Shown here in pieces: positions 9,001-12,000 of a stretch of DNA of 16,924 nt; positions within the stretch are counted from its first letter, which is position 1; every line of letters begins with the position of its first letter. The stretch is from a virus (taxonomy: Duplodnaviria; Heunggongvirae; Uroviricota; Caudoviricetes). Position numbers: made by a program. The stretch lies in the IMG/VR virus record IMGVR_UViG_2850790056_000003; one strand, given 5' to 3'.

Positions 9001-12000
9001 GCCTCTTACGAACGCAGGGAACGGACGAACCTCTTCCGCCTCAACTGTGCCGTCATCAAAGGTTTTGACGTATATTTCTCGTCCGACGAGAAGCGCTTTA
9101 CTGATTGCGCTCTGCGCCACGCCAAAGTCCTTAGCGGCTTTCTTCTGACCGAACCTGTATACGTAATCAGCCAGGGTCTCTTTTTTCATCGCCATAACTG
9201 ACTCCTTCAAAATGCCTATATCATTACGCACAGTTATTAAAATGTCAGCACCGCAGATATTTCACTACATATAACCAAAGGTGATATGGTATGAACATGA
9301 AAAAGAAACCGTTAACCCCTGAGCAACTGGAAGACGCCAAGCGTCTGAAAAGTATTTTTAACGCTAAAAAGAAAGAGTTAGGCCTGTCGCAGGAATCATT
9401 AGCCTATGAATTAGGTGTTACCCAAAGCGCTGTTAGTCAGCTAATGGCTGGCATCAACGCCATAAATGCCAGCCACGCAGCACAGCTCGCTAAGATACTG
9501 AATGTAAAGGTCGGAGATTTCAGTCCCAGCCTGGCAAAATCTATTGCAGAAATGGCGCTCGCAATTGAAGAGCCATTAACTCGTGTCCCCGCTTACGAAT
9601 ATCCGTTACTCTCCTGCGTACAAGCTGGCGCATTCTCAATGGATGATATTTCGTACACCGCAAAAGATGCGATTAAATGGATCTCCACCACCACAAAAGC
9701 CAGTGACAGGTCGTTCTGGCTGGAGGTCAAGGGGCATTCAATGACCGCACCGCAGGGTGGTAAACCCAGCTTCCCTGAAGGTATGCTGATACTCGTTGAC
9801 CCTGAACGGGAAATCGAGGATGGCGATTTTTGCGTGGCCCGAATGAACGGCGATGAATTTACCTTCAAACGATTCATTCGTGAGAGCGGTAAAGCGTACC
9901 TGGAGCCGCTCAACCCACGATTCGACATGATTGAGTGTAACGAAAACTGCCAGTTTGTCGGAAAGGTCATCAAATCGCAGTGGAATGATGAGACTTTTGA
10001 TTGAGCTCACAGAGTGATTTGACATCCTTCACGCCTGAAGAATGTGGAGGATGTCAAAAGCACGTTGGCATCATCATGCCACGTAAAGAGGATTAGTATG
10101 CTTCAAAAGCTAGACGTCGCAGACAGCGTGCGTCGCGAGCTGTCTCCCCGTACCGCGCGTAAACACAAAGCTGAGTTCGGCCAGTTCATGACGCCTTCTG
10201 GCGTGGCCCGTTTTATGGCCTCCTTGTTTCCACCGAGCACAATGAAAACTTGCCGTCTACTGGACGCAGGCGCTGGTGTAGGCGCACTGTCTTGCGCCTT
10301 CCTCGACCGTTGGCTGGTTGGCGAGTTTGGCTTTGAGTCTGTCGAGGCAACAGCCTACGAAATCGACAAAAAGCTGTGTGGTCACCTTGCGAAGCACTTA
10401 ACCGGGTACAGGAGAGTGACGCCCCGCATCATCGAAGGGGATTATATTGAGCTGGCAACCGCCGAAGGTCTACAGTATCGAGGTTATACCCATGCAATAC
10501 TTAATCCGCCTTACAAGAAGATCAATAGCCAGTCAGCCCACCGGCAGGCTCTTCGCGCTGTCGGTATCGAGACGGTAAATCTGTATTCCGCCTTTGTTGC
10601 ACTGGCTGTAGGTGAGGTTGCACCTGGCGGGCAGATAGTGGCCATAATCCCACGTAGTTTCTGCAACGGACCGTATTACCGTCCGTTCCGTAATTTCATA
10701 CTTGAGCGGGCAGCAATCCGCCATATTCATTTGTTCGAATCACGTAGCAAAGCTTTCAGGGATGACGATGTGTTGCAGGAAAATATTATCATCCGCCTGG
10801 AGCGTGGAGGCCGTCAGGAGGCTGTTACAGTCACAACTTCGACCGATGATAGCTTTTTTGACCTGGTCACCTACGAACACCCATTTGACCAGATTGTGTA
10901 CCCGGACGATTCGGAGCGGTTTATTCATGTGCCGACCACGCTCGAGAAAAGCGCCATTGAGTTATCATCCGCCGTACAATGTTCGCTGGCTGATATTGGC
11001 GTGAAGGTATCGACCGGACCGATAGTTGATTTCCGACTGAAAGCTCATTTGCGCAGCATGCCAGAAGAAGGAACTGTTCCGCTGATCTACCCGAGCCATT
11101 TGAGTATGAGTAGCACTGTCTGGCCTGTGGAAGGTTTGAAGAAACCCAACGCAATCATGCGCAACGACGAGACAGAAAAGTGGCTTTACCCGAACGGTTT
11201 TTATTGTGTGGTGCGTCGTTTCTCGTCGAAGGAGGAAAAGCGCCGAGTGGTGGCAAGCGTCGTTGATCCTGCTACCTTCAGTGAGTATTCAGTGTTGGGA
11301 TTTGAAAATCACATGAACGTGTTTCATGAGAACAAACATGGGTTACCCGAGGCGCTGGCCCGTGGCTTGGCCGTGTTCCTGAACACTACCGCAGTGGATA
11401 AGTATTTCCGTCGCTTCAACGGGCATACACAGGTCAATGCAACCGACCTCAAGATGATTAAGTACCCAAGCCGTGACACTCTGATAGAGCTTGGCAAGTG
11501 GGCTATGCAACAAGAAACTCTCACGCAAGAACATATTGACGCTAAGCTAGGAGCTCTGACTGCATGAACAACCAAAATGATTATATTGAGGCCGCTCAGC
11601 AAATTATAGCATCCTTAGGCCTGCCCAGAGCGCAGCAGAATGAGCGTTCTGCTTTGTGTTTGCTGGCACTCCTGAACCTCACGCCGGGAAAAGCATGGGC
11701 CGACGCGGAAAATCCGCTTGTGGGCATTACACCAATCATGAATTGGGTTCGGGAGCACTACGGCAAGGTCTACGCACCCAATACTCGTGAGACATTCCGC
11801 CGCCAGTCTATGCATCAGTTCTGCGCTGCTGGAGTAGCCCTCTACAATCCGGACAAGCCCGATCGCCCAGTGAACAGCCCGAAGGCTGTTTATCAGATCG
11901 AACCTGCTGCTCTGTCCACGCTACGCACTTTCGGCAGCCCGGCATGGCACGATAGCCTTGCAACCTATTTAGCCGAGCGTGAAACGCTGGTTACCCGCTA

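Follow-up and report, generated by a model that had tools for sequence, protein, structure and literature searches.

Results

The window analysed here is a 16,924-nt stretch of a tailed-phage genome (Caudoviricetes; IMG/VR record IMGVR_UViG_2850790056_000003). Its cI repressor gene, with HTH_3 and Peptidase_S24 domains, occupies positions 9291-10004 on the + strand, and the ATG of a methyltransferase gene (M) lies at 10098. Within the intervening 93-bp gap, a repeat search finds an inverted repeat with arms at 10018-10032 (TTTGACATCCTTCAC) and 10044-10058 (GTGGAGGATGTCAAA). The arms are 15 nt long, 93% complementary (one mismatch) and separated by 11 nt, and the hexamer TTGACA is present on both strands, at 10019-10024 (+) and 10057-10052 (-). 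No other inverted repeat in the window combines 15-nt arms with one mismatch or fewer and a loop of 3-20 nt; comparable repeats arise in 0 of 100 dinucleotide-preserving shuffles, and the arm sequence, at up to two mismatches, has no second occurrence in the window. The hairpin and its paired hexamers, first pointed out in an earlier note on this DNA, are thus real. As RNA, the + strand is predicted to form a 16-bp stem, including two G-U pairs, at -22.0 kcal/mol (-17.8 kcal/mol for the - strand), and the folding z-score of the 121-nt region around the repeat is -4.3. The same note had judged the repeat unlikely to be an intrinsic terminator, and it is indeed not one: the hairpin is followed by AAAGCACG on the + strand and TCACTCTG on the - strand, neither of which supplies a T-run, and the terminator scan does not report it.

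Directly after the repeat lies a captured, promoterless res'-M-R cassette (10058-12525, + strand), in which M spans 10098-11567 and the endonuclease gene R spans 11564-12517. The cassette shares 84.7% nucleotide identity over 2,470 nt with Pseudomonas aeruginosa plasmid pPA-2, with homology starting at 10058. Its products contain Eco57I methylase and BsuBI/PstI endonuclease Pfam domains, and M-R has been assigned to M.EcoGIII, with the recognition sequence CTGCAG (PMC6602927). The cassette opens with a relic of a plasmid serine-recombinase gene, namely its last 13 codons (10058-10096, + strand; KHVGIIMPRKED and a stop), identified by alignment with three plasmid loci (L070, L073 and L074) whose resolvases end in ...LYKHVGVITPRQ and a stop. 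A small hairpin, 10066-10081, lies inside this relic. An intrinsic terminator at 12536-12557 (+) closes the cI-cargo unit and forms the right boundary common to all cargo variants.

Sequence comparison relates the repeat to the right end (RE) of IS609, a member of the IS200/IS605 group. In E. coli K-12, IS609 ends in ...GGGATCCACGTCCTTCAGGGCGTGGAGGATGTCAA, directly 3′ of insQ, the TnpB gene. Positions 10019-10049 of the window, read on the - strand, match the last 31 nt of this RE (TCCACATTCTTCA-GGCGTGAAGGATGTCAA) at 27 of 31 positions with one gap; identity is 28/31 for the copy in the sister phage Lyz12581Vzw and 27/29 for the + strand of PhiR12_3. The TCAA terminus of the - strand match is the complement of 10019-10022 and is directed towards cI. 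A second RE-type tail, GTGGAGGATGTCAA, occupies 10044-10057 on the + strand, and its TCAA (10054-10057) adjoins the R-M cassette. In other words, the centre of the palindrome and one arm match the IS609 RE (ending ...GGAGGATGTCAA), and the other arm is an inverted copy of the tail. A genuine RE consists of an imperfect hairpin followed by a 10-nt single-stranded tail that ends in the cleavage site TCAA; in the window the tail is found on both strands, which extends the hairpin to a 40-bp palindrome with a TCAA-type terminus at both outer edges. On the basis of the K-12 alignment, family members, and genuine REs 3′ of TnpB genes, we place the element proper, a palindromised RE of 39 bp, at 10019-10057, with the cI stop codon 14 nt before it. 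T10018 and A10058 are flank bases that pair by coincidence, A10058 being the first base of the plasmid-derived cassette. Compared with the 40-bp family consensus, TTGACATCCTCCACGyCCT-NN-AGGrCGTGGAGGATGTCAA, the window copy carries four transitions and a 1-nt deletion, and is in this sense a decayed copy.

Genuine REs in IMG/VR point in the same direction. Of 29 distinct sequences found 3′ of IS609-family TnpB genes, 20 end in GGAGGATGTCAA and then diverge, and genuine REs and palindromes exhibit the same CCACG/CGTGG versus CCCCG/CGGGG variants. The window element shares with IS609-group REs a subterminal imperfect palindrome homologous to the RE hairpin, a TCAA terminus that lies about 10 nt 3′ of the foot of the hairpin and borders directly on unrelated DNA, and a right flank that, in the uninterrupted site, lies 3′ of a TTAT/TTAC-type target. 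IS609 is cleaved at TTAT on its left side and at TCAA on its right side (PMC6906374), and among nine genuine left ends, TTAT precedes eight and TTAC one. The left-end motif (TTAT followed by CCGGTGCGCCGTAAAA and a hairpin) is absent from the window at up to three mismatches, and tblastn of InsQ and TnpA against the window returns chance matches only (E ≥ 0.5). Since the window lacks a left end, tnpA and tnpB, the element is a solo end relic rather than an insertion sequence. One point against an RE origin is that genuine REs carry GTAGGAATCC-ACG on the 5′ side of the hairpin, not TTGACATCCTCCACG; because of this difference, palindromisation is a step that we infer rather than observe.

In the window copy, comparison with related sequences identifies the loop, GCCTGAAGAAT (10033-10043), as a decayed palindrome centre, in place of which GCCCTGAAGAAT is found in the sister lineage and GCCTGCAGAAT in two contigs. 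All of the approximately 240 copies of this phage lineage retain the outer 15 bp unchanged, which may reflect either recency or selection for some unseen function. Five stem pairs show compensatory double changes, a number reached in 0 of 500 shuffles, and the symmetry runs to the very centre with a 2-nt core, as in a hairpin.

Three joints can be evaluated against a counterpart that lacks the palindrome. In the window, TCAA/AAGCACG corresponds to ...TTAC/AAGCACG in the plasmid resolvase gene; in the GF4-3 chromosome, TCAA/TGGCGG corresponds to ...TTAT/TGGCGG in K-12 yeaX; and in a P1-like sequence, TCAA/GCAAC corresponds to ...TTAA/GCAAC in P1. A target-like TTAN therefore precedes 3/3 evaluable flanks, for which we estimate a chance expectation of about (1/64)^3. 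The position of this plasmid sequence right after TTAC is what insertion of an IS609-family element into the resolvase gene would predict, with the caveat that TTAC is not the usual IS609 target, TTAT, and is seen in one family member only. On the cI side, TTAN is absent at the corresponding position in palindrome-free relatives (cargo types D and E), which are different modules and not empty sites. The ccdB joint of the F plasmid, which lacks TTAN in what we take to be the F sequence, was left out of the joint count.

Related 40-bp palindromes are present in 2,233 plasmid and 207 phage records. In the copies examined, homology is confined to about 40 bp, and the flanks diverge right after TCAA. 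The palindrome occurs in unrelated contexts in thousands of plasmids and phages, at roughly one copy per replicon; it is thus tied to neither cI nor R-M, and is unannotated in every record examined here. A metagenome scan for CATCCTCCAC..GTGGAGGATG yielded many unrelated hairpins and coding matches, with the TGA/TCA extension in a subset only; a relaxed two-arm pattern run on genome contigs found unrelated palindromes only, such as a repeat in an Oxalobacter MAG; a full-text literature search with the arm sequences found unrelated primers only; and nothing specific came of a search for lambdoid-phage boundary sequences. Searches of Rfam at gathering and at permissive thresholds give no credible match at the repeat, only sub-threshold hits to microRNA-type hairpins.

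A promoter scan of the + strand from 8636 to 10762, which includes the cI-M gap, detects no promoter-like site, and the repeat most likely lies inside a cI-M-R transcript, as the earlier note had proposed. In the plasmid homologues, M-R likewise lacks a promoter, and a preceding gene ends 9-14 nt before it (for three of them this gene encodes a recombinase and the distance to M is 9-13 nt); that M-R expression depends on events at the repeat is, in line with the same note, probably correct. CTGCAG is 100% methylated in lysogens (PMC6602927). From this methylome and the absence of a consensus promoter, we infer that M and R are read through from the cI promoters, across a -22 kcal/mol hairpin without a U-tract.

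Discussion

We conclude that the inverted repeat between cI and M is, in all probability, a palindrome-shaped solo relic of an IS609-type (IS200/IS605) right end, and that it marks the exact joint at which a plasmid-derived, promoterless R-M cassette was connected to cI. The palindrome may have originated by recombination of two oppositely oriented REs within their self-complementary hairpin, or else by template switching at one end. With one RE behind cI and the other inside the resolvase gene of the plasmid, either route would fuse cI to res'-M-R. As for its present function, the palindrome appears to have no dedicated regulatory role. At most, the hairpin might trim the proportion of cI to R-M message, whether as a block to 3′ exonucleases, a weak attenuator or a target for RNase III.

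It is possible, though on balance doubtful, that the hairpin, whatever its origin, now serves the cI-M-R transcript at the RNA level, by shielding the cI message from 3′ exonucleases and so stabilising it, by attenuating in part, or by offering RNase III a site at which R-M becomes uncoupled from cI. The hairpin follows the cI stop codon by 14 nt on the coding strand, its 16-bp stem is predicted to be stable (-22 kcal/mol), and both of its imperfections are G-U on the sense strand and A-C on the antisense strand. Moreover, cargo type E has a hairpin and T-run at the same place, and among eight family copies examined for gene context, six lie 0-14 nt from a stop codon. However, two G-U pairs would fall on one strand by chance in one case out of four, decay in this lineage has reached the inner 5 bp of the stem, and decay of the type C copy takes no account of the sense strand. 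The palindrome family conserves sequence and not pairing alone, the pKPN-e44 copy lies away from any gene end, and there is no match to an Rfam family. With respect to RNase III, for which about two turns of double-stranded RNA are the criterion, the predicted stem measures 16 bp with two G-U pairs in the window copy and 19-23 bp in intact family copies.

Somewhat less probable is the idea that palindromised IS609-family REs make up a distinct class of recombination site that is still active, and act as portable docking points for cargo swaps in phages and plasmids. Given the self-complementarity of the end hairpin, TnpA or host recombination could synapse and exchange two oppositely oriented REs, which would fuse the right flanks and leave a 40-bp palindrome behind. 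Cargo would then be swapped at these points (defence genes behind cI here; fec, ccd, tail-fibre or lysis modules elsewhere), which would account for the palindromes found at mosaic joints of over 2,000 plasmids and over 200 phages. For the window copy in particular, we regard it as unlikely that an IS609-family TnpA, acting in trans, would still recognise the hairpin in single-stranded DNA, cut after TCAA on either strand and join DNA lying 3′ of TTAN, making the palindrome a docking site for cargo behind cI. Several sequence features are consistent with such activity: one and the same right edge adjoins three different cargos (res'-M-R, a 160-bp segment with an R fragment, and a 245-aa ORF), the edges of the element are also mosaic breakpoints (10018 and 10058), the orientation of the centre differs between cargo types A and B, P1-like and F-like plasmids as well as one chromosome carry palindromes at joints left by deletion or mosaicism, and flanks follow TTAN. 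On the other hand, the canonical reaction requires a left end, ordinary homologous recombination on a common 40-bp patch would also place breakpoints at the element, and copy number is about one per replicon.

The earlier note had also offered two regulatory readings, neither of which finds support. That the repeat is an operator, at which a dimeric protein (cI, Cro, M.EcoGIII or a host factor) controls R-M, might be suggested by its dyad symmetry and conserved arms, but is highly improbable. The motif common to OR (9271-9287) and OL (12670-12686), ATAACCAAAGGTGATAT / ATCACCAAAAGTTATAT, has no counterpart in the repeat (best match, 4 mismatches in 14); the identical repeat accompanies a cI allele of 69-70% identity; the symmetry continues to a 2-nt core, like that of a hairpin; and the palindrome occurs where neither cI nor M exists. 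Nor is it a C-box or methylase operator of the R-M system itself: the comparison with upstream regions of homologous systems that the note had called for reveals that the repeat is absent upstream of M in all six plasmid homologues of M-R (72-88% amino-acid identity). Equally remote is the reading of TTGACA as the -35 element of a promoter for M-R, or of an antisense promoter into cI, despite a perfect hexamer on each strand. The overlapping -35 elements that had been proposed are the complement and the tail of the transposon end, ...GGATGTCAA (...TGTCAA), both are directed into the palindrome, and both lack a -10 partner, the hexamers 16-18 nt downstream being AATGTG, ATGTGG and TGTGGA on the + strand and GGCGTG, GCGTGA and CGTGAA on the - strand; at the repeat, the scan lists no sigma-70 site.

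Three other candidates were tried and rejected. The centre CCTGAAGAA was considered as an N-binding loop like that of boxB in lambda nutL, but the repeat lies upstream of PL, the presumed boxB stem is not formed here, and the centre is the IS609 hairpin loop. A res site of the plasmid resolvase whose 3′ end the repeat adjoins is dismissed because nothing similar is present in the vicinity of the resolvase genes. A methylation-sensitive R-M control site at the CTGAAG/CTGCAG centre is likewise discarded, since CTGCAG is found in two derived contigs only and CTGAAG in both main lineages.

If the repeat is indeed an IS609-type relic, the joint provides a base-level account of how the EcoGIII (PstI-type) R-M system came to lie behind a repressor gene, without a recognisable promoter of its own, in Stx2 phages of outbreak strains, including the O104:H4 phage P13374 and related phages of O157, O111 and O145. 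A plasmid res-M-R operon would have been interrupted by an IS609-type element and joined to cI via the transposon end. Fusion behind cI makes R-M a trait expressed in lysogens by virtue of wiring rather than through a dedicated switch. More generally, palindromes of 40 bp derived from TnpB-type transposon ends form a large class; they are located where modules meet, in enterobacterial plasmids and phages numbering in the thousands, and can be used as breakpoint markers for mosaic evolution. They also call for caution: dyads that bear TTGACA should not be read as regulatory sites.

The closest known relative is the IS609 RE of E. coli K-12, with which the repeat shares 27-28 of the last 31 nt, the hairpin core CCACG TCCTTCAGGG CGTGG, the 10-nt tail ending in TCAA and the divergence of flanks right after it. 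The window element differs in that the 5′ side of the hairpin is an inverted copy of the tail, such that both strands read as a right end, and in that TnpB, TnpA and a left end are missing. Similarities to IS608 of Helicobacter pylori are also evident. The TnpA of IS608, a Y1/HUH enzyme, reportedly acts on single-stranded DNA and inserts 3′ of TTAC, with TCAA as the right site. Both elements have a subterminal hairpin with a cleavage site, TCAA, about 10 nt 3′ of its foot, and in donor plasmids TTAC precedes the sequence of the captured cassette flank; however, IS608 is a different element in a different host, and the usual target of the IS609 group is TTAT. Miniature IS200/IS605 derivatives (PATEs/MITEs) are, similarly, short non-autonomous relics made of end hairpins. 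A 50-nt mini-IS609 upstream of stx1A (TTAT followed by CCGGTGCGCCGTAAAA-hairpin-TGGAGGATGTCAA) has its hairpin and tail in common with the palindrome. This mini element is located between the Fur box and the ribosome-binding site of stx1A. Unlike the palindrome, which consists of two right-end tails and no left end, these miniature elements keep a part of both ends.

Parallels extend to other systems. REP/BIME sequences of E. coli stabilise upstream mRNA. They too are palindromes that occur scattered, measure about 35-40 bp, frequently follow the 3′ end of a gene closely, and are related to a Y1 (RAYT) transposase family; in contrast, their sequence is unrelated, including a GTAG head that is absent here, and they number in the hundreds on chromosomes, whereas the present family has about one copy per replicon, mostly on plasmids and phages. 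'Nearly precise excision' of Tn10 and Tn5 is said to leave palindromic remnants. In that case as well, a short palindrome from the outer ends of inverted transposon arms is found at a rearrangement joint, although the transposon family is a different one and, in the mechanism proposed here, the recombining repeat would be the end hairpin itself. Finally, the arrangement recalls cI-rexA-rexB of lambda, where accessory defence genes, pointing the same way as cI, likewise fill the space from cI to the terminator upstream of PL; here, that position is taken by a PstI-type R-M cassette of plasmid origin, joined via a transposon-end scar.

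The inverted repeat and its setting

The window belongs to a lambdoid, Stx2a-converting phage of P13374/TL-2011c/phi191 type, with matches in 98 phage records and in 147 complete genomes of E. coli. Its immunity region comprises cro (8992-9231, - strand), cI (9291-10004, + strand), the N6-adenine methylase gene M (10098-11567), the BsuBI/PstI-family endonuclease gene R (11564-12517), a strong terminator (12536-12557) and a PL-like promoter (12659-12687). Likely cI/Cro operator motifs lie at 9271-9287 (OR copy, ATAACCAAAGGTGATAT) and at 12670-12686 (OL copy, ATCACCAAAAGTTATAT), the latter overlapping the PL-like promoter. 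The restriction-modification (R-M) system is the published EcoGIII, with recognition site CTGCAG, and every such site is methylated in lysogens, 95NR1 and 95JB1 among them (PMC6602927). Rfam matches above gathering score were also obtained for STnc100 sRNA (4167-4372, -), isrK Hfq-binding RNA (13134-13209, +) and C4 antisense RNA (13234-13321, +); downstream of PL, the latter two directly precede an antirepressor-type region or overlap its start.

An earlier note had placed an inverted repeat in the 93 bp that separate cI (stop at 10004) from the methylase gene (ATG at 10098), and we recover it at exactly that position. Its arms, TTTGACATCCTTCAC (10018-10032) and GTGGAGGATGTCAAA (10044-10058), contain one mismatch and are separated by 11 nt. 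It is the sole repeat of such quality in the window, and none arose in 100 dinucleotide-preserving shuffles. The inverted repeats at 3381-3414 and 6428-6461 (12-nt arms, at most one mismatch, 10-nt loop) are of a kind whose count falls within the shuffle range. As + strand RNA, the repeat is predicted to form a 16-bp stem of -22.0 kcal/mol, in which the mismatch and an extra top pair become G-U; the - strand RNA gives -17.8 kcal/mol. No T-run follows on either strand, as the note had stated.

A relic of an IS609-family right end

Judged by its sequence, the repeat derives from the right end of an IS609-family element, and both of its edges are TCAA termini. Half-copies upstream of stx1A (H-19B/933J) and in VT2-Sakai run on as ...GGACGGCGTTTTACGGCGCACCGGATAA, a string with 17,120 hits spread over 4,919 of the 5,426 E. 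coli genomes. Among these hits is the K-12 ydcL-ydcO interval, which holds IS609 (a tnpA pseudogene plus insQ, encoding TnpB). The left end of this element has the sequence TTAT/CCGGTGCGCCGTAAAA (slashes mark element boundaries), followed by a hairpin, and the right end, directly after insQ, has GGGATCCACGTCCTTCAGGGCGTGGAGGATGTCAA/. Its last 31 nt are identical to the window - strand at 27 positions and to the sister lineage Lyz12581Vzw at 28. In type B, an alternative cargo locus described below, it is the + strand that matches (27/29), and thus the centre is oppositely oriented in types A (the window) and B. The reported IS609 cleavage sites are TTAT on the left and TCAA on the right (PMC6906374). 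Among 29 distinct IMG/VR sequences taken from 3′ of IS609-family TnpB genes, 20 terminate in GGAGGATGTCAA before diverging, the remainder having a one-base difference or being cut off; the nine genuine left ends in the sample are preceded by TTAT (eight) or TTAC (one). The CCACG/CGTGG and CCCCG/CGGGG variants are common to genuine right ends and palindromes. It follows from the match that the two TTGACA hexamers of the repeat are the tail ...TGTCAA and its complement. Neither tnpA, tnpB nor a left end is present in the window, making the repeat a solo relic.

Other reduced forms exist. A 50-nt mini-IS609, consisting of TTAT/CCGGTGCGCCGTAAAA, a single hairpin and TGGAGGATGTCAA/, lies between the stx1A Fur box and ribosome-binding site (H-19B, AF034975.3 about 12160-12215; 933J, M19473.1 95-121), and another copy is embedded in a small ORF (VT2-Sakai orf72; L213, 1201-1255) near the Sakai Stx2 phage right end. 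The K-12 insQ 3′ end plus right end (L218, the K-12 locus, 1831-1947) gives a weak, below-gathering Rfam match to HgcC family RNA (E 0.024), where the TnpB guide (omega/right-end) RNA would be expected.

The palindrome is widely dispersed. BLAST places the repeat at 262 sites in complete E. coli genomes, 106 of them plasmid-borne, and a 42-nt consensus matches 207 phage records and 2,233 plasmid records, mainly from Klebsiella, Escherichia and Salmonella and mostly conjugative. Copies lie upstream of the LPdar/lydA promoter in P1-like phage-plasmids, just after ccdB in F-like plasmids, adjoining trbC, behind a tail-fibre gene, some 200 bp before fecI in pKPN-e44, and at a deletion joint in the E. 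coli GF4-3 chromosome (L091, that locus, 1501-1540). Among the copies examined, mutual homology is confined to about 40 bp. Intact copies are perfect 19+2+19 bp palindromes, e.g. TTGACATCCTCCCCGCCCT-AA-AGGGCGGGGAGGATGTCAA, and across 15 members compared, compensatory double changes occur at five stem pairs, a count reached by 0 of 500 shuffles. The window copy differs from the consensus by four transitions and a 1-nt deletion, through which the inner 5 bp of stem became loop. In GF4-3, a deletion has removed yeaV, yeaW and the beginning of yeaX; the 40-bp palindrome occupies the joint, where an in-frame ATG at its edge could restart the YeaX fragment. An uncultured Oxalobacter MAG carries at least five copies matching TGACATCCNNCAC..GTGNNGGATGTCA, which may reflect local expansion of a related end-derived repeat.

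A plasmid cassette in a cargo slot behind cI

Relatives sharing the cI 3′ end differ in what separates cI from the terminator: this cargo slot exists in at least five versions, and homology among them stops at 10018 and 10058, the two edges of the repeat. In type B (PhiR12_3, strain G1/2) the arms are identical to the window's (30/30); the centre differs (GTCCTTTGGGGC) and the DNA 3′ of the right arm is unrelated. Type C combines a left arm in decay with a 245-aa ORF; the repeat is missing from types D and E. The same repeat and M-R genes also occur in phages whose cI is only 69-70% identical. By these comparisons, the repeat is specific to neither cI nor the R-M unit. One alternative cargo of the slot (window 10018-12538) encodes a small membrane protein, an SDH-family Clp-fold protease and HicAB; another has HicAB only, preceded by an AT-rich hairpin and its T-run; an R-gene fragment is also found. 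In two more distant cI relatives, the gene is directly followed by a terminator and lambda-like operators. Two contigs (L014 6622-6662, L015 3927-3967) have the repeat centre GCCTGCAGAAT, with an EcoGIII/PstI site (CTGCAG) in it. The centre has CTGAAG elsewhere, both main lineages included, which suggests a derived SNP.

The cargo of the window comes from a plasmid. Positions 10058-12525 are 84.7% identical to P. aeruginosa plasmid pPA-2 over 2,470 nt, and 10058-10096 correspond to the final 13 codons (KHVGIIMPRKED, then stop) of a plasmid serine-recombinase gene, a fossil upstream of M. The cassette (resolvase remnant, M and R) therefore begins at the base that follows the right arm's TCAA. 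In three plasmid M-R homologues, the recombinase gene ends 9-13 nt before M. A small hairpin at 10066-10081 (TGGCAT-CATC-ATGCCA) is old coding sequence within this relic, and its counterpart in plasmid recombinase genes is also palindromic (GGCGTCATCACGCC). Between the Shine-Dalgarno GAGGA (10088-10092) and M, the window is one base short (10093-10097, 5 rather than 6 nt; TTAGTATG versus TTAGTTATG in nearly all relatives), a feature common to the window and one IMG/VR contig only. A direct repeat, TCAAAAGC, spans the palindrome right edge (10054-10061) and recurs just past the M start codon (10103-10110). In a predicted fold, the cI end (9994-10000) pairs with 10103-10109, enclosing both hairpins and adjoining the M start.

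True transposon termini at the edges would put the flank directly behind a target tetranucleotide in uninterrupted relatives. The window's right joint, TCAA/AAGCACG, corresponds to ...CTTTAC/AAGCACG in three plasmid resolvase genes; one GF4-3 joint, TCAA/TGGCGGATATC, to ...GATTAT/TGGCGGATATC in K-12 yeaX; and the P1-like joint, TCAA/GCAAC, to ...CTCTTAA/GCAAC in P1. All three evaluable joints are thus preceded by TTAN, for which we estimate a chance of about (1/64)^3. On the cI side, types D and E hold modules of their own and do not serve as empty sites, and at the second GF4-3 joint K-12 itself is rearranged. On this alignment evidence, the plasmid-origin R-M cassette starts immediately after one TCAA edge, at a target-like site.

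Genuine right ends read GTAGGAATCC-ACG on their 5′ side, which implies a secondary origin for the left arm of the palindrome. Its simplest explanation would be an exchange between two oppositely oriented right ends within the self-complementary hairpin, one end behind cI and the other in a plasmid resolvase gene; this would fuse both right flanks and leave tail′-hairpin-tail. Alternatively, template switching at a single right end would yield the same product. We infer such an origin from quasipalindrome correction and from the IS608 model, with its single-strand transposition, its recognition of hairpins and its TTAC/TCAA sites.

Does the repeat regulate M-R?

No promoter-like site was found on the + strand from 8636 to 10762, and the cassette is promoterless in its plasmid context too. 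Since the methylase is fully active in lysogens, M and R are most likely transcribed from the cI promoters, reading through the repeat, which cannot then be an efficient terminator. It is conceivable that the hairpin protects the 3′ end of the cI message, attenuates weakly or attracts RNase III. The evidence for such an RNA role is thin: the G-U pairs on the sense strand, the position right after the stop codon and the presence of a terminator-like hairpin at the equivalent position of type E speak for it, whereas the inner stem has decayed in the window copy and the entire left arm is decaying in type C. An operator, one of the candidates of the earlier note, is rejected, given that the repeat contains no counterpart of the motif common to OR and OL, that the same repeat accompanies the divergent cI, and that plasmid M-R homologues (72-88% protein identity) have no such repeat upstream of M. 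The note's further candidate, the TTGACA pair as -35 elements, fails on the transposon-tail identity of the hexamers and the lack of a + strand promoter-like site.

Comparison with known systems

The case for a regulatory role of the repeat in the R-M system is largely deflated. Its value lies instead in documenting how a lysogen-expressed R-M system became wired to cI, and in opening the way to a widespread class of recombination scars or sites: palindromised right ends located at the module joints of thousands of plasmids and phages. The palindrome is marked in none of the annotated records examined, and sequence-string and keyword searches of the literature covered found no description of a solo right end forming a 40-bp palindrome at module joints. 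In kind, the element is already known, as the end of an IS200/IS605 element, and the gene layout around it mirrors that of the lambda immunity region.
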